Under the pieces are notes generated by a model. That model saw only the letters and a program-made list of their open reading frames with translations, did no database searches and was not told the DNA's origin. The translations under genes were made by a program, and so were the position numbers. This document shows positions 8,691 through 19,111 of a stretch of 64,000 nucleotides of DNA, one piece after another. This DNA is from Nitrospirota bacterium (GTDB lineage Bacteria > Nitrospirota > Nitrospiria > Nitrospirales > Nitrospiraceae), in assembly GCA_963703955.1 (NCBI GenBank), contig CAVPGK010000010.1, forward strand, positions 224,001 through 288,000. The letters run 5' to 3'. Position 1 is the stretch's first letter, and each line of letters starts with the position of its first letter.

Positions 8691-9497
8691 TTATCTATCC
8701 GTAAAATAAATTTCCCTAAGAGCCACGGTTTCCAACAAAGTATCTTCTGAGCCAAAAAGGGAAGATGAATTGAGATTATAAGTGTCAAGCAATTTGAGGA
8801 CATTCAGTCTCTCTTCGACGGGGATGCTAATCTTCCACAGGACGTCTTGTTCGGCATCGTTACGGGCAAACACGTCCTCGTGGCAAGCATAATTCCACGT
8901 TTTGTTTTCGTGGACCGTGCAGATGGTGTACTCGCTCTGCTGAAGAAAATGGCGTGGGTGGCCTCTCGTGTAAGGCCCTAGACTTATAATGTGTGGTTCG
9001 TCCGGCGAGCCCACCTTCCCTCCGCCCGTATATTCCCAATACACGAATATGGACACATTCTTACTATTCTCTACGACGTTTCGGAAAGCAAAGAACGCTG
9101 CGACATAAGGAGATCGAGTCCAGTCCAGCAGTGGAGAAGGGAAACCGTGGTGGCGTAGATAGACCATGTATTCGTAAGCCGGTAATCCTAGGAGCAGGAG
9201 AGAGTCCTGCTTCTTAATCTCCTCGTCGTGCTCCGGAGGGGTGGGAATGTTCCAATCTAATCCAGTGAAAGTCTCGATTTGTGGCTTTGCCGCCGAGATG
9301 ATCCTATAATACTGGCTGACGCTGAATTGTTTTTTCTTGTAGCGCTCAAGCGTAGTGGTCAAATGCCAGATATCGCTTGCTTGCCCGCGAAAGAGGAATG
9401 GCGAAACGCTCAGGGCTGTCTTAGCAGCTCGCATCTGCATGAGCCTCTCTAACTGCTCTTGGAACTCTTCCCAACTACCGACATTGACCTGTTGCAT
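8691..9497 (-). CDS. FRG domain protein
   Basis: FLFRGQ, HHGFPSPLLDWT.SP.VA.FFA, QQS motifs; more AT-rich than its neighbours. Confidence 0.9.
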   Translation of the reverse strand: MQQVNVGSWEEFQEQLERLMQMRAAKTALSVSPFLFRGQASDIWHLTTTLERYKKKQFSVSQYYRIISAAKPQIETFTGLDWNIPTPPEHDEEIKKQDSLLLLGLPAYEYMVYLRHHGFPSPLLDWTRSPYVAAFFAFRNVVENSKNVSIFVYWEYTGGGKVGSPDEPHIISLGPYTRGHPRHFLQQSEYTICTVHENKTWNYACHEDVFARNDAEQDVLWKISIPVEERLNVLKLLDTYNLNSSSLFGSEDTLLETVALREIYFTDR

Positions 9498-9581: not shown

Positions 9582-9799
9582 GGGCGGGAGGGTCTGAGCC
9601 TGCATCGCGAATCACACGTAGGCTCGGGCCACCGCACGTGCCGAACAGATGCGGTCCGCTGTAGGTGGATGGCGAGGACTGTTTGAAGTTCCGTTCGAGC
9701 GGAGCTCCGAACGGAACGAGTTCCGCAGCCGAGCAGATGAGAGGCTAGTGCGGTCGAGCCGCAGTGTCTGAGCAGGGCAGGACTCCGACCGTCCCGCCC
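9582..9799. repeat. MITE-like palindromic repeat
   Basis: GGGCGGGAGGGTCTGAGCCTGC (9582-9603) vs GCAGGACTCCGACCGTCCCGCCC (9777-9799) form an imperfect IR; inner hairpin GTTCCGTTCG...CGAACGGAAC. Confidence 0.7.
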
Positions 9800-9805
9800 T
9801 CCGAA

Positions 9806-10475
9806 CTACACCGGCCACTTCTCTTCCTTCCATGCCATCTCCCAAAACATCCACTCATACCGCGAGCTGATGAGGAACGCCTCCTCCATCCGCCTTTTCT
9901 CGGCCTGCCCGGCGTCCTTCGCCCAAAGATCCACCTTGGCCCGCATCCATTTCTGTACCTCGGCAAACTCCGGCGAGGCATACAACAGAAGCCAATCGCG
10001 GTACGGGTGATCAGCCTTAGGTGCTCCGTGTTTCAGGAGGTGCTGTCCGACGACACAGTAGATCCAAGCGCAGGGTAGAGCAACAACCGTGATCTCGGCG
10101 GCAGATCCGTGTCTGCGCGACCGCCAGCATGTGGCGGGTGTACGCGAAATTTGTCGGCGCCATCGGAACGGATGTCATCTGTTCGGGCGTCATCTTCCAC
10201 CGCTTGCCGTAGCTCTCATGCAGGCCGCGCTCCGTGATGATCGTCTCCTCGACGAGTTTCGCAAAGCGCAGGGCCGATTCCGCGTCGGGCGCCTTCTGGG
10301 CACCGGCGGAGAACACTCGTGCAAGCTCTCCAAGAAAGCGGGCATCTTGCAGGATGTAGTATTTGAACTTCCGCTCGGGGAGCGTGCCCTTGCCTAACGC
10401 CACGACAAAGGGATGCCGACGCTGCGCGTTCCAAATGGAGTGGGCCTTTTTCTTGAGCTGCTCGGAAAAGGACAT
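9806..10475 (-). CDS. tenA: Thiaminase II / aminopyrimidine aminohydrolase; 1-nt frameshift near 10110 (probable assembly error)
   Basis: HPFV..L..GTL...F..Y..QD; corrected C-half LPCAWIY...Y.DW...Y...EF...SRYEWMFWEMAW. Confidence 0.9.
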
Positions 10476-13071: not shown

Positions 13072-13755
13072 ATGAAGCAAGCCATAAAAGCTCTCATCTT
13101 CGATTTCGATGGAGTGCTGGCGAATACAGAGCCATTACACTTTCGAGCGTTCGAACGAATTTTGAGCGGAGAAGGTATTGCTTTGTCACCGGACACCTAC
13201 GCAGAGAGATATGTCGGGTTAACGGATGCAGAGTGCTTTAAGGCAGTATTCATGGCGCACGCCAAGCCCCTATCAGCGCCGGTTCTCCGCACACTGGTCC
13301 AACGAAAAACTCTGCTTATGCAGGAGGCTATAGCAACGGAGGATGTCCTGATTCCAGGCGTGGCCGATCTTGTCAGATGTCTTGTCGATCTTTATCGGCT
13401 CGCCATCGCGTCTGGCGCCTTGCGCGAGGAAATCCGGTTGGCCCTTAAGCTGGCCGGACTGCTTGAGGCATTTGAACACATTGCGGCAGCCCAAGATGTC
13501 AAAAAAGGGAAGCCTGCTCCCGACCTGTACCTCCTGGCATTGCATCGCTTGAACATGACATCGCCAATTATCTCGTCGGAATGCCTGGCCATTGAAGATA
13601 CGCCTCATGGCATTCAGGCCGCACATGCGGCCGGTATGCGTTGCCTCGCCGTCACGACGACATTGAACGCGGAACGCCTTCGTCTTGCCGATGAAGTGAC
13701 AGCATCTCTCCAAAAGACCGATTTCTCCCAAATTCTCAGACGGTTGTCGAACTGA
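13072..13755 (+). CDS. HAD-superfamily phosphatase (beta-PGM/CbbY-like)
   Basis: DFDGVLANT, IASG, KPAPD, IEDT..GI.AA..AGM. Confidence 0.92.
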   Translation: MKQAIKALIFDFDGVLANTEPLHFRAFERILSGEGIALSPDTYAERYVGLTDAECFKAVFMAHAKPLSAPVLRTLVQRKTLLMQEAIATEDVLIPGVADLVRCLVDLYRLAIASGALREEIRLALKLAGLLEAFEHIAAAQDVKKGKPAPDLYLLALHRLNMTSPIISSECLAIEDTPHGIQAAHAAGMRCLAVTTTLNAERLRLADEVTASLQKTDFSQILRRLSN

Positions 13756-13778: not shown

Positions 13779-13817
13779 TTAACACAATGGTAGCAAAGCA
13801 TAAACGTATTTTTAACA
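13779..13817 (+). promoter_or_regulatory. Four hexamers at 11-bp period (TTAACA, GTAGCA, TAAACG, TTAACA); possible OmpR/PhoB-family operator
   Basis: Hexamers start at 13779, 13790, 13801 and 13812 in an AT-rich spacer upstream of the operon. Confidence 0.4.
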
Positions 13818-13859
13818 CTAATCATCTAACATGTCCTGAAGAGGGATTAACTCGATCGT

Positions 13860-16269
13860 ATGTCCCGAAGCGGTTCTCCAACCTCAGCTCTCTTCCCGAA
13901 GAACGGATCCGGCCAGCTGGCTCTAGATGCGCAACGCATATTCTCGGAGCTGAACCTCGATTCAATTCCTTTTTCGGCTCATGATATCACGGCCGGCTCA
14001 GAGAACGAACTGCAGGCCGCAGTTGCGGGTCATACCGACCATGTCGACCTCCCCATCGTTATCGAATCCTCGAACTACATGAAGAATATTCTAAGACGCG
14101 CTGCGACCGGCGAAAGCCCTAAGCAGCTCATCGCCAACCTTGAAGCTTATCTGCGTTCCCATGCGTCGAATGTGTGGGAAAACTCCTGGGTCCGGTTACC
14201 TGTTTCAACACTGACGCCTTTTGCACTCAATCTCTTGCGCCGTGACATGACCGAGGATAAACGCGACGCCTGTGGCGCTCCACGCAAAGACGTATCGCGG
14301 TTTTTTTTCCCAACAAAGGCAAGATTGGCTGCGAGTGCCAGTCAGCTACCTGCTGAAACTCGCCCTGGCGCAGGCCATTAGCGATGAGGGTGCGGCTCAC
14401 CCGCTCCTCATGAAGGCGGGCGAGCGCTTCTTGGCGCACTTCCTCAATGATAATAGCTCGCCGGAAACGTTTTCCTTCTACGTCATACCTTTGACTCCTG
14501 AGACCGGCATGGGGCGGGCTGTTGCGAAAGAAATGGCGCAGCGGTTCTTGCTGACTCAGCTTCTTGTTATGTACGCGAACGTCCGTTTCGGGTTGAAGGA
14601 TTCCGGCCAGCGCGCTCTGATCTATTTCGCGCCACATCCACCAATTCGACAGAAGGAGCTCAATTCGCTGATTTCCGACTCCTTCTATCGGGAGCTGTTC
14701 ATGAACCCATGCTTGTCAGGGTGGGATCGTGGTGAGGACAAGTTCCGCTACATGCACCTCTGCCATCAGATGCTGTCCCGGAGCCAGCTCAACGCCGTGA
14801 TCAAGCTCAGAGATGCCGGTATCATCACGCGAAATCTGGTTGTACTTCCGTCTACGTCCAATACCAGTTTGGCCAACAACGGCACGCACCTGAGCTTGGG
14901 CAGCCGAACGCTGACGAGGCTACTGCAAGACTGCTCGCCCGCCTTCACTGAGCAACATGAGAAATATGTGGGCGATCTCGTCATCAAGATCGCAGAGCAT
15001 TTCTTTCCTCTCTTTGTCGGGACCTATAGCGCGGCACCGTATCGGCTGGATTTCTGGGATTTCCATCCAGAAAAAGCGCTCGGGTTTCTTCCTCATGAGC
15101 TGGAGGACACACATCTACGGATGCTCTGGCGTCGGTGGAAAAAGAAGGCCGGTCTCAGTGTCTTCGGACATCCGATCACGCCGCTGGGCCCGCTTTGGCT
15201 GGATAAGGCCACGAGTGCCATCTTTCGGTTGAAAGGCGATTTTGTTCCGGACTTTCGCTTGATCGATTATCTGGTGGCGTTGCTGAGCACAAGTGAAAGC
15301 CCCGCGCACGACGGTAGGCTTGGGAACGATCAGCGGTTGAAGCGCGACCTCGCCCAGCTCGGCGTCTTCGACGAATCAATGTCGCTGTACCTCCTCTACA
15401 AGCTTCGCAGCTATGCAGCCATGGGTTTTTCGGGATTCGAGGGCCGCCAATACAGTCTCTTTGAGAGCCTGGTCGACGATATGGGGGATGCTGCGAGTTT
15501 GCAGGCTCTCGTGACCGCGCTCGCCTTCAAATATGTCGTAGAAGGAATTATCCGACACACGGATATTCCCGATGATCCTCTCACGGAGAGCGAACGCCGG
15601 CAGATGATATTCGGGACTGCGATCGGAATCCCGACCTGCAATGTGCGACATAACAGCCCTAATTCATTCCTGATGAAAATTCTCTCGAAGACTCAGAAGA
15701 CGCGGCTGAGCCGGCGGTACGCCGATCACCTGCGTGTCCGACTGTCTGATTATCAATGGGCCCTTTTAGTCACACTCGAGGAAGATGGGGTGGACATCAT
15801 CGAGCAATTCGGCCTGCGGGAGGTTATCAATCGGCTGAGAGAACGGCTTCTGAATTCCGAGCACCACGGGGTGGCCGGGAAATTGACCGCTGGCATTTTG
15901 AGGGAAGCCGGAGCGCGCTCAGCGATGAGCCTATCAGGGGACGAATTCAACGTCGCAGCCGAATCCTATTATCGGGAAACGTTACGTCTGCGTCACCTCA
16001 TCGAAGCGTTTGAAGTCCTCGAAAACGGTGTCGGCCAAATTGATACGGCGAAGAGCAGTACTGACGAACAGTACCGCCGAGCGATGACGACCGTGCTTGG
16101 ACCGAAGAGCGGCACCCAGTTTCTTCAAGAGGCCAAGGAAGAGCTCATCCGGGAGGACGCAGACTCCCGCACATTGCAGCTATGCATCTACCTAACGTTG
16201 CTCATCATCTGCCGAGATCGGGAAATCGCCGTGGCGGCGATGGCAGAGGCAGAGCGGGACTCGACGTGA
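13860..16269 (+). CDS. Large (~800 aa) uncharacterised protein with glutamate-cysteine ligase/carboxylate-amine ligase-like motifs; split by a frameshift in the T8 run at 14301-14308
   Basis: ORFs 13860..14381 and 14272..16269 join if one T is removed; motifs TAGSENELQ, NNGTHLSLG, GFEGR. Confidence 0.7.
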
Positions 16270-17303
16270 AGCATCAATATGTTGACCGGGAAACCTCCAC
16301 CGTCCATACCGAACGGCTGTACGGAGACCGGTTTCTCACGTGGGCCTATCAGACTCCATGGGAAGACGCCGCGTGGTTTTGCAAGGCGTTGACGTCTTCC
16401 CGAACTTCCCAAATGTTGAGCTTCTTCAACTATGACGTCGAGTTCGTGGCCGCGTTAGCCGGGGTCCATCGTTTTATCAAGTCTCTCGGAGTGGATCCTA
16501 CCGAATGTCTAGAGGCCCCCGGGACGCTTAATACTCCTCGAAAGGTGTTCGAACGCAAATTGCGTTATTGGGAAGTTCGCCCGATGGATGAGGAGAGAGC
16601 GGCCATTGTCTCTCCATGTGATGCCCGGATGCTGGTCGGTTCGTTTGCCAAAACCTCGGCGCTCTTCCTGAAAGGAAAATTCTTCGAATTGAAAGAACTC
16701 TTTGGAATGGAACGTTCTACATGGTGGGCCGACTTTGAGGCTGGCGACTTCGCGATCTTCAGACTCACGCCCGACAAGTACCACTATAATCATCTTCCGG
16801 TTGGCGGTGTGGTCGTCGACAGGTTCGATATCCATGGCAGGTATCACTCGTGTAATCCTTCTGCCGTAGTCGTCGCATCGCCATATTCAAAGAATACGCG
16901 CGTGGTGACGATTTTGGACACTGATGTCGCAGGCGGCAGCCAGGTAGGACTGGTCGCCATGATCGAGGTTGTTGCGCTCATGATCGGCCGAATTGACCAA
17001 TGCTACTGTGAATCCCGATACGACCATCCGCGCAACATTTCAAAGGGAATGTTGCTTCGCAAAGGCCAACCGAAGAGCTTGTACCGACCCGGCAGCTCCA
17101 CAACAGTCGTTGTGTTCCAGGCGGGACGGGTGTGCTTCTGTGAAGATATTGTCTGCAATCTGTCGCGCCCGTGCGTCGCCAGCCGCTTCTCGGAAGGATT
17201 CGGACGTCCGTTGGTCGAAACAGATGTAAAGGTCCGCTCAACGATTGCGTACCGGCGACAAGATCCAACCCGGCATTCTTTGGGGGTCGCCTATGGTGAA
17301 TGA
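16266..17303 (+). CDS. psd: Phosphatidylserine decarboxylase family protein (pyruvoyl-dependent)
   Basis: F.RKL...RP, SPCDA, FRL.PD.YH..H.P, N.R, PGSST cleavage-type motif; GTGA overlap with the upstream stop. Confidence 0.85.
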   Translation: MKHQYVDRETSTVHTERLYGDRFLTWAYQTPWEDAAWFCKALTSSRTSQMLSFFNYDVEFVAALAGVHRFIKSLGVDPTECLEAPGTLNTPRKVFERKLRYWEVRPMDEERAAIVSPCDARMLVGSFAKTSALFLKGKFFELKELFGMERSTWWADFEAGDFAIFRLTPDKYHYNHLPVGGVVVDRFDIHGRYHSCNPSAVVVASPYSKNTRVVTILDTDVAGGSQVGLVAMIEVVALMIGRIDQCYCESRYDHPRNISKGMLLRKGQPKSLYRPGSSTTVVVFQAGRVCFCEDIVCNLSRPCVASRFSEGFGRPLVETDVKVRSTIAYRRQDPTRHSLGVAYGE

Positions 17304-18345
17304 AGTGTTTCTTCTGAGCCTTGTGATTTGCTACGCCATACTGTTTTCTTGGGCGTTTCGAACGCTGCCACAAGAGGATTGGCAATTTCTCGCCTCCCTC
17401 CCGAAGCGCAAGACTAACCTCGGAACCTGGAGCGGCCTCAATCTCACATACTATGGTTTCTTGACCGCCATGGCGGTGACGATCGCTGTCGCGTTGGCTA
17501 TTGTGCTCATGGGTTCACTCTCTTTGCCGCTGATCAGCATCACAGTGCTTGTCGTTGCGCTCCTCGCCCTAACGGTTCCCGCCGCCAAACTGATTGCCCA
17601 GGCGATTGAGGACAAGATGAATACGTTTACGATCGGCGGCGCATCCTTTGTCGGGCTTATCGCGGCACCGTGGGTGATCACACTGATCAATTCCACCCTT
17701 GCACCCCGGATGGGATTCGAATTGCCGATGTTCGGGACACTGGCTCTCCTCGCGGTCGCATACGCGTTGGGTGAAGGAACCGGACGTCTCGCTTGCATCA
17801 GTTTTGGGTGCTGCTACGGCAAACCCGTCTCGGTCGTCCCGGCATGGTGGGGCTATTTCTTTCGCTTTCGCTATTTCGCCTTCATCGGGCAGACCAAGAA
17901 GGTCGCGTACGAAGGCGGTCTGGAATCCGTTCCTGTCATCCCAGTCCAAGCCATAACAGCCGTCCTCTACGTGGGAAGCGGGCTGCTGGGCCTAGCCCTG
18001 TTTCTCGGGGGACAGGCTCTGGCGGCCTTCATGATCACAGTCCTTATCACACAGGCGTGGCGAGCCCTTTCCGAATTGCTGCGGGCAGATTATCGCGGGC
18101 GGAGCGGGCTTTCGGCCTATCAAACCATGGCAGTGATCGGGTGCTTCTACGCGCTGATCCTTATCGTCCTGTTACCCAATGAACCAAGGAGACTCCCTGA
18201 TATTGTCAGAGGTCTGACATTGCTTTGGCACCCCGCCGTCATACTGTTCCTTCAAGCCTTATGGCTGATGATCTTCCTCTACACAGGGCGTAGCAGAGTC
18301 ACTGCCTCAACAATCTCCTTTTCCATCCTTAAAGATCGTATTTGA
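17293..18345 (+). CDS. Divergent prolipoprotein diacylglyceryl transferase (Lgt) family membrane protein
   Basis: YYG, GRLACISFGCCYG, P.Q, R..SE..RAD.R; overlaps the 3' end of psd. Confidence 0.8.
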   Translation: MVNEVFLLSLVICYAILFSWAFRTLPQEDWQFLASLPKRKTNLGTWSGLNLTYYGFLTAMAVTIAVALAIVLMGSLSLPLISITVLVVALLALTVPAAKLIAQAIEDKMNTFTIGGASFVGLIAAPWVITLINSTLAPRMGFELPMFGTLALLAVAYALGEGTGRLACISFGCCYGKPVSVVPAWWGYFFRFRYFAFIGQTKKVAYEGGLESVPVIPVQAITAVLYVGSGLLGLALFLGGQALAAFMITVLITQAWRALSELLRADYRGRSGLSAYQTMAVIGCFYALILIVLLPNEPRRLPDIVRGLTLLWHPAVILFLQALWLMIFLYTGRSRVTASTISFSILKDRI

Positions 18346-18346
18346 G

Positions 18347-19111
18347 ATGATGTTCTGGTATGCGATCTCCGCCTTGGCTATCGCTGCGGGATTTGCTTCT
18401 CTCAGCCCCACTCCGGCCGTAGCTTTGAATAATCATGACTCTATTCCGGCGACCTACCCTCAATCGCTGGAGCGGGATCTCAAGATCTTGCTTGATGCCG
18501 CCCGCTCCGGTCGACAGGATAGCGATCTGTTGGCGAGGCTTGCAGAGGTCTATCTCGATCTCGGGGATGACCTGTATGACGACGAAAAAAAACGGCATCA
18601 TGCCTATGAGGAGGGAAGCCGTGCCGCTCGTCGCGCGCTTGAAATTGACGACAGGAACGCAGATGCGCATTTTCTCTTCGCGGCAAACTTGGGAAGCGCG
18701 ACACGCTTGAAAGGTCTGCCCTCTGCCGCCTGGACCCTGAAGGACATCAAGAACCACCTCGAACGAGCCATCGAATTAAGACCTGATCACGCCCCCGCGC
18801 TACAGATGATGGGAGGACTGTTGGCCGAACTTCCGTGGCTGGTCGGCGGTGATTCGCGGGCGGCTCAGCGCTATCTTGAACGGGCGATCGCCGTCGATGC
18901 GAACTACACCAATGCGCGCCTTCTGCTGGCCAAACTGTATGTCAAGCAGAACAGGCTCGACGAGGCGCGTCAGGAGCTCGAGGCAGTCATTCGCACCGCC
19001 GATCCTCACTACCGTTACGCGTGGGCAAACAAATTCAAACCCGAAGCGGAACGGCTTCTGAAAACCCTACAGGAAAAATCAGACAGAGAACGAAGAAGAC
19101 GGCCCGGCTGA
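18347..19111 (+). CDS. Exported TPR-repeat protein
   Basis: Signal peptide; helical repeats ARRALEID, LERAIELRP, YLERAIAVD..Y..ARLLLAKLY; starts 1 nt after the lgt-like stop. Confidence 0.8.
   Translation: MMFWYAISALAIAAGFASLSPTPAVALNNHDSIPATYPQSLERDLKILLDAARSGRQDSDLLARLAEVYLDLGDDLYDDEKKRHHAYEEGSRAARRALEIDDRNADAHFLFAANLGSATRLKGLPSAAWTLKDIKNHLERAIELRPDHAPALQMMGGLLAELPWLVGGDSRAAQRYLERAIAVDANYTNARLLLAKLYVKQNRLDEARQELEAVIRTADPHYRYAWANKFKPEAERLLKTLQEKSDRERRRRPG

Follow-up and report, generated by a model that had tools for sequence, protein, structure and literature searches.

What might a bacterium make with an amide ligase, a decarboxylase of the phosphatidylserine decarboxylase (PSD) family and a relative of the diacylglyceryl transferase Lgt that are encoded end to end? 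The question is raised by a locus of a Nitrospirota bacterium (GenBank assembly GCA_963703955.1, 82% complete), of which we analysed a window of 64,000 nucleotides (contig CAVPGK010000010.1, positions 224,001 to 288,000 of the forward strand; coordinates below are those of this window, + strand, unless stated otherwise). A ligase gene at 13860-16269, split here into two open reading frames (ORFs; 13860-14381 and 14272-16269), is followed by genes for a PSD-family pyruvoyl enzyme (16266-17303) and a divergent, nine-helix Lgt-fold membrane transferase (17293-18345). The junctions are tight: the ligase stop codon (16267-16269) overlaps the GTG start at 16266 of the PSD gene (GTGA), the PSD stop codon (17301-17303) overlaps the Lgt-like gene, with its ATG at 17293, by 11 nt, and the Lgt-like gene ends at 18345, a single nucleotide before the ATG at 18347 of a tetratricopeptide repeat (TPR) protein gene. 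The original prediction, made from the letters of this stretch, had described these couplings correctly and had proposed that amide ligation, decarboxylation and diacylglyceryl transfer build a new aminolipid, possibly phosphorus-free, or a lipidated small molecule or protein. We argue that the ligase-PSD-Lgt triad is, very probably, a phosphate-starvation lipid pathway, as its linkage and promoter sequences indicate, and we hold it likely, though less securely, that its product is S-diacylglyceryl-(4-aminobutyryl)cysteine, a lipid of the type reported as BACys.

The first line of evidence is that the three genes travel together. Our linkage sample comprised 87 loci, or 63 at 90% identity (a contig scan with one protein query yielded two real loci plus a 17-residue match, L018, that was dropped), and the counts come from those loci with enough flank. 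The PSD gene lies directly 3' of the ligase gene in 53 of 57 non-redundant loci; PSD and Lgt-like genes follow the ligase in that order in 41 of 45, and with order disregarded 43 of 45 loci contain both. A survey of 401 genomes from the phylum to which Desulfogranum belongs recovered the ligase from 60 of them, the Lgt paralogue from 59 and both from 58 (58/61 positives), and in the phylum of the source genome the ligase gene is found in 13/301 genomes. The conserved core is the triad of ligase, PSD and Lgt paralogue, while the TPR gene, which follows it in 9/40 non-redundant loci, and a HAD-family phosphatase gene, which precedes it in 6/41, are lineage-limited passengers. Neighbourhood conservation, which the original prediction had named as a check, is real for three of its four genes and does not extend to the TPR gene.

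The ligase itself gave nothing significant against Pfam (including the family model of GshA proper, PF04262), NCBIfam or PDB sequences, and matched only unnamed clusters in the ESM Atlas. Its family comprises 2,951 clusters at 90% identity (8,000 candidates scored) and 743 representatives at 50%. Among the matches listed, the closest named relatives are Nitrospirota, and the named carriers include Nitrospira, Geobacter, Citrifermentans, Geomonas, Desulfobacter, Desulfonema and Desulfococcus, as well as Desulfogranum, a Syntrophorhabdaceae, Ca. Wunengus and an Edaphobacter metagenome-assembled genome. Geobacter pickeringii, Citrifermentans bemidjiense (Gbem_1868) and Desulfonema ishimotonii (DENIS_2835) are carriers in culture. 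An intact relative was modelled with AlphaFold2 (AF2; pLDDT 89) and compared with known structures using VIA-align. Escherichia coli GshA (1v4g) scored Z 16.5 (rmsd 4.2, 404 residues aligned), GshF and YbdK-type enzymes 16.1, Dop 14.3 and PafA 14.2, against 6-9 for glutamine synthetases (GS) and at most 4.5 for unrelated folds; the top 19 rows all belong to the glutamate-cysteine ligase (GCL)/GS clan. GshF, GshA, Dop and PafA likewise fill the top ranks of a Foldseek search (best E 7.1e-3). A GCL-type fold had been guessed earlier from three motifs, TAGSENELQ (13989-14015), NNGTHLSLG (14875-14901) and GFEGR (within GFSGFEGR, 15424-15447), all of which are present in the order proposed, and the structure comparison bears the guess out.

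Because Foldseek and profile comparison gave no significant match, residues of the ligase were equated with those of GshA by eye. Mapped in this way, the order and spacing of GxExE, MPC, KxxY, GxH, R235, Y300, R304/K306 and ExR are kept. The metal/ATP-type residues are nearly invariant among 331 full-length homologues: E49 and E51 are found in 328 each, E108 in 313, H345 in 330, and E204, E529 and R531 in all 331, with R or K at the position of GshA R304 in 330. The equivalents of Y131 and Y300 are conserved as well, and L135 is replaced by C. The roles of the active-site residues of E. coli GshA were reportedly worked out by Hibi et al. in 2004. By eye, the ligase has no signal peptide. It probably represents a new GCL-fold family, for which ATP-dependent carboxylate-amine ligation is predicted from the model. 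Since canonical GshA occurs in only 1/401 genomes of the phylum of Desulfogranum, the triad operon would need a ligase of its own.

The Lgt paralogue matches PF01790 above the cut-off (E 4.6e-8). Its AF2 model (pLDDT 94) aligns with Lgt 5azc at Z 13.1 over 232 residues, the next match scoring 6.3, and Foldseek places 5azb at rank 1 (E 2.4e-3). Equivalents of Y26, G99, G142, R143, G154, R239, E243 and R246 are kept. Six residues are given as essential in E. coli Lgt in the part of the study available to us, namely Y26, H103, R143, N146, G154 and R239 (PMC13251419); of these, Y26, R143, G154 and R239 are invariant in the paralogue family. The paralogue also has a different distribution of charge. 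In loops whose borders were drawn by hand from the model, and across 50 sequences that are kin to one another, lysine plus arginine averages 18.3 on the active-site side and 2.9 on the opposite side, with the former higher in 50/50; counting membrane-near residues only, the values are 9.9 and 2.6. Canonical Lgt has the reverse bias (7.0 versus 10.7, active-site side higher in 0/7), and in the E. coli enzyme the arms and head face the periplasm. By the positive-inside rule, this reversal suggests an inverted orientation for the paralogue, which would place its active site on the cytoplasmic side, where the ligase and a PSD act. We lean slightly towards a fuller view, in which added helices have flipped the Lgt fold into a cytoplasm-facing head-group exchange enzyme that would move diacylglycerol from a phospholipid to a thiol resembling a glutathione precursor and, with the new GCL family and the PSD paralogue, make a thioether lipid similar to phosphatidylethanolamine (PE). 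Cysteines that are invariant or nearly so are also found in the paralogue, on the side predicted to be cytoplasmic: one belongs to the second core helix and three to GRLACISFGCCYG. Speculatively, metal binding or thiol relay by these residues might stand in for H103.

The predicted orientation bears on a different proposal, namely that the triad modifies a protein or a cell-envelope polymer, a PafA/Dop-like ligase tagging the target and the Lgt paralogue lipidating it. Dop and PafA do score close to GshA, the known substrates of Lgt are proteins, and a secreted TPR protein is coupled to the triad in the window. A cytoplasmic active site would nevertheless be ill-suited to prolipoproteins, for which a separate canonical lgt exists in 7/7 triad-bearing genomes checked. 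The triad is not accompanied by any conserved substrate gene, the TPR protein lacks cysteine and is missing from 31/40 loci, and PSD would have no role in tagging. We regard protein or polymer modification as very unlikely, and of the two lipidated products named by the original prediction a small molecule is favoured over a protein.

The PSD paralogue matches PF02666 (E 1.5e-34) and falls below the NCBIfam equivalog cut-offs (124 bits versus 371, and 73.5 versus 111.75). The self-cleavage residues of Psd are D90/D142-H144-S254 according to the portion of the report at hand (PMC7952604), and the paralogue keeps the equivalents of D90, D142, H144, H147 and G-S254, with Y137 changed to R and LGST to RPGSST. 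The aspartate, histidine and GS/S cleavage motifs noticed earlier are all in place (SPCD at 16611, YHYNH at 16773-16793 and RPGSST at 17082-17102). N-terminal helices resembling the membrane anchor of E. coli Psd are retained.

Could PSD and Lgt paralogues simply be stress back-ups of PE synthesis and lipoprotein maturation, beside a ligase that makes gamma-glutamylcysteine (gamma-Glu-Cys) as a redox thiol? Their Pfam assignments would fit, a thiol source could be useful where GshA is so rare, and in the source genome, 82% complete as assembled, the paralogue is the only lgt that we found. Five relatives have both copies, and canonical lgt is thus probably missing from the assembly rather than from the genome. 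A canonical psd-pssA pair stands on another contig (C20) of the source genome, in line with the earlier remark that the operon holds no phosphatidylserine synthase gene, and canonical psd and lgt are present, apart from the triad, in 5/5 relatives. Extra PE would cost phosphorus under phosphate starvation, and near-perfect co-occurrence of ligase and Lgt paralogue is not expected of unrelated functions. Of the explanations considered here, the back-up role is the least credible.

That phosphate starvation is the relevant condition is suggested by the promoter. Between the HAD gene and the ligase gene, 38 nt 5' of the ligase start, lies a Pho-box-like site of four direct units with an 11-bp period and the core TTAAC (13779-13822). 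Near-repeats in 92 non-redundant upstream regions peak at spacings of 11 bp (78) and 22 bp (83), compared with 10-49 at other spacings. A tandem 11-bp motif trained on 91 homologue upstream regions, with the window left out, reached a log-likelihood of 288 versus 41-46 in three shuffles, and 56/91 regions score at least 10 bits. When the source genome was scanned with the three-unit motif, the best match lay 68 bp before pstS, and the next matches included a second pstS and a phosphate-gene island. The window site ranks 7th of 6,630,904 positions with four units, 14th with five and about 140th with three. Phosphate genes are present in 14/33 loci of at least 10 kb, compared with 49/1,454 windows of 16 kb in the source genome, a comparison favoured by queries that came from those same loci. 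No sigma-70 promoter or terminator signal at the operon rose above shuffles. As the learned motif tops at a pstS promoter and ranks the window site 7th, the operon is probably under Pho (PhoB-type) control. The phosphate island (C17:346000-385000 of the source genome) holds two pstS, pstC/A, ppk, PsiE, PHO4-type transporters and unnamed genes, many of them preceded by a top-scoring repeat motif.

Which lipid would such an operon make? The BACys lipids, described in Desulfatibacillum alkenivorans PF2803 as 'N-butyramide cysteine glycerol' lipids, account for <1% of lipids at first and for about 65% once phosphate becomes limiting, and the part of the report available to us names no genes for them (Ding et al. 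2024, PMC11181052). Their published formulas fit the triad. Gamma-Glu-Cys minus CO2 is C7H14N2O3S, and joining this head group to diacylglycerol (DAG) 35:0 gives C45H87O7N2S+, 799.6229 computed versus 799.6228 in the portion of the lipid table at hand (PMC11181052). The AEG(33:0) and DEG(33:0) BACys formulas listed there likewise equal core lipid + gamma-Glu-Cys - CO2 - H2O + H. The diagnostic fragment given in the same source, C7H13O3N2S+ (205.064), corresponds to RS+ of the proposed head group and seems unlike the acylium or protonated acid expected of an ester. The part of dataset S1 that we could use labels abundant BACys species carrying an additional oxygen as hydroxylated (PMC11181052); if the link is a thioether, these could be sulfoxides.

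In the pathway that we propose, the ligase, as its fold and motifs suggest, would couple glutamate through its gamma-carboxyl to cysteine at the expense of ATP, giving cytoplasmic gamma-Glu-Cys. The Lgt paralogue, its active site facing the cytoplasm, would then move the diacylglyceryl group of a phospholipid onto the cysteine thiol; by analogy the donor would be phosphatidylglycerol, and the glycerol phosphate released could be reused. The pyruvoyl group of the PSD paralogue would form a Schiff base with the glutamyl amine, the only free amine, and the adjacent carboxyl would be removed. Steps two and three could come in either order, the lipid-first order being favoured because the PSD paralogue keeps N-terminal helices like the E. 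coli Psd membrane anchor. The product, S-diacylglyceryl-N-(4-aminobutyryl)cysteine, would be a phosphorus-free zwitterionic thioether lipid with the elemental formula of BACys that could substitute for PE. By analogy with their relatives, the three enzymes would thus supply exactly the operations needed: an amide bond, a thioether to diacylglycerol and loss of a carboxyl beside a free amine. The phosphorus-free aminolipid imagined in the original prediction is strengthened by the Pho-box-like promoter and by the identity of the predicted formula with that of an orphan lipid already in the literature.

Several observations weigh against this reading. On the enzyme side, Foldseek returned no match at E<=0.001 for either the ligase or the Lgt model, a comparison of the ligase family profile with E. 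coli GshA (hhalign) gave a probability of 0.07 and did not recover the match, and Dop and PafA score nearly as high as GshA against the ligase. In the by-eye mapping GshA R132, which we take to be a cysteine-site residue, is replaced by M, and the amine substrate may for this reason be other than cysteine. The Lgt paralogue lacks H103 (variable; V here) and N146 (replaced by C), two residues that vary among true Lgts too, according to the pages of that study open to us (PMC13251419). On the lipid side, the BACys structure is tentative, from tandem mass spectrometry (MS2), the name 'N-butyramide cysteine' may denote an isomer of 4-aminobutyryl-cysteine, and the undecarboxylated DAG form (O9 N2 S) is not in the part of the lipid table available (PMC11181052). 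Desulfatibacillum, the only known BACys producer, does not appear among the named rows in any of three protein searches, each listing 120 of about 2,950 matches. Finally, the ligase is broken in 4/15 Nitrospirota-side genomes, the source genome included.

Some of these points lend themselves to a neighbouring explanation, in which the triad makes, under Pho control, a phosphorus-free lipid other than BACys: the ligase would join glutamate or another acid to a different amine, and the Lgt paralogue would form another thioether or an O-ether. The regulatory and linkage evidence fits such a lipid equally well, the cysteine site of the ligase is only partly GshA-like, H103 and N146 are changed in the Lgt paralogue, and the same Desulfatibacillum result leaves the link between triad and BACys producer unmade. 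Against it stand formulas that agree exactly for three types of core lipid, together with the RS+ fragment, in the partial data of the BACys report, the retention of the GshA-type MPC and KxxY motifs in the ligase, and the thiol-specific chemistry of the known members of the Lgt family. We consider a non-BACys product unlikely and continue to favour the BACys-type thioether lipid.

Does the operon work in the genome in which it was noticed? A run of eight T at 14301-14308 carries the frame change that splits the ligase gene. The original prediction of a ligase of about 800 residues is correct for the family, since both halves align to intact relatives of 800-825 aa, and does not describe a single ORF here. 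Homologues have 16 or 17 residues across the T-run stretch in 99/99 cases, a length that ten T would fit better than seven. This ligase copy may reflect a sequencing error or be inactive. A real frameshift, with the T run either inactivating the operon or acting as a slippage or phase-variation switch, is a possibility that we rate a little below even. It would agree with a near-identical contig from another run, which has nine T and is also out of frame, with broken ligases in three other Nitrospirota-side genomes (L015, L137 and L141, in G007, G218 and G187, with frameshifts, stops or truncation), and with the scarcity of the ligase gene in the source phylum. Yet the nine-T contig has a depth of 3, at which a difference of this kind may be erroneous; apart from the ligase gene the operon is intact, as is its promoter motif; and there is no T run at the corresponding place in 20 related loci. 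Frame changes also affect 3/29 compared gene stretches of the assembly, the ligase gene included, and the assembly has a short pstC-like ORF counted among its other frame breaks and a tenA-like gene (by eye; 9764-10475, - strand) with a frame change near residue 120, another sign of indel errors. The 60 ligase matches in the phylum of Desulfogranum have no internal stops. Our functional inferences do not depend on the frameshift, because intact relatives were used.

The TPR gene is accessory to the triad. Its product (18347-19111; RMD1-3/TatT/BstC-like, secreted as judged by a signal peptide identified by eye) has a 44% paralogue elsewhere in the source genome and may be a lipid carrier; as it contains no cysteine, it was ruled out as a substrate of the Lgt paralogue. 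The HAD-family phosphatase (13072-13755; PF13419, E 2.8e-30), whose position just 5' of the operon had been noted before, lies ahead of the promoter motif and accompanies so few loci that it was rejected as an operon member and is probably a neighbour only. In other loci, PHP-glycosyltransferase-4 (PHP-GT4) fusions stand beside the triad in 6/33 cases of at least 10 kb (e.g. L063:7861-10290) and a Zn-dependent phospholipase C does so at L098:6487-7446; these are candidates for the glucuronosyl lipid that rises with BACys. A DksA/TraR gene is found in or beside the operon in 16/87 loci (e.g. L081:10414-10818). The window also holds an FRG-domain gene of lower G+C (8691-9497, - strand) between thiamine-salvage-like genes.

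Phosphorus-free lipid remodelling is known, but the literature that we searched describes neither this combination of enzymes nor an Lgt that faces the cytoplasm and has a small thiol as its substrate. A search on the triad or the lipid, with most subscription journals outside its scope, gave no description of these genes; the locus tags Gbem_1866-1870 are absent from the main text of PMC2996986, and a 2026 aminolipid review has no passage on cysteine, Lgt or decarboxylase. If the proposal is right, it would define a new route of membrane-lipid synthesis that releases phosphate in the same step as the transfer, and an Lgt relative lipidating a small cytoplasmic thiol would be new enzymology. 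The orphan BACys class would gain genes and a revised structure and would extend to nitrifiers, Geobacter, anammox-related and acidobacterial lineages, and in anaerobes starved of phosphate a PE-like thioether lipid could make up most of the membrane. With occurrence in 60/401 genomes of one anaerobe phylum and 13/301 of the source phylum, the triad could be a widespread means of sparing phosphorus in sediments, aquifers and soils, and could serve as a gene marker for phosphate stress. A candidate of three genes makes BACys biosynthesis testable at once.

How, then, does the triad compare with known systems? With GshA and the N-terminal domain of GshF (1v4g, 3ln7, 3nzt), YbdK and Dop/PafA, the ligase shares the fold (Z 14-16.5) and the order of metal-, ATP- and glutamate-type motifs, whereas it is about 300 residues longer, has 8-15% identity and no Pfam or HMM match, and has its gene beside those of lipid enzymes and behind a Pho-box-like site. 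The PSD paralogue has D90/D142-H144-S254 and the N-terminal helices in common with Psd (7cnw, 6l06) and PsiD, and differs in RPGSST for LGST, R at Y137 and the lack of a linked pssA. Relative to Lgt (5azb/5azc), the paralogue retains the fold and Y26, R143, G154, R239 and R246, but lacks H103/N146, has two extra helices and a reversed charge bias, and is encoded apart from canonical lgt. The predicted product shares the DAG, AEG and DEG formulas of the D. alkenivorans BACys lipids, as far as the available part of their description goes; induction there is by phosphate limitation, where here a Pho-box-like promoter is read from sequence, and the triad is known here from other genomes, with Desulfobacterales relatives of the producer named among the ligase carriers in the matches listed.

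Pho-regulated routes to phosphorus-free lipids include ornithine lipid synthesis by olsBA/olsF, betaine lipid synthesis by btaAB, the sulfolipid SQDG, and PlcP plus a glycosyltransferase. To our knowledge and in the searches made, none of these relies on a ligase of the GCL fold, an enzyme of the Lgt fold or a pyruvoyl-dependent decarboxylase. The role predicted for the triad is nonetheless the same, the replacement of phospholipids when phosphate is scarce, and PHP-GT4 fusions and a Zn phospholipase C adjoin the triad in some loci.

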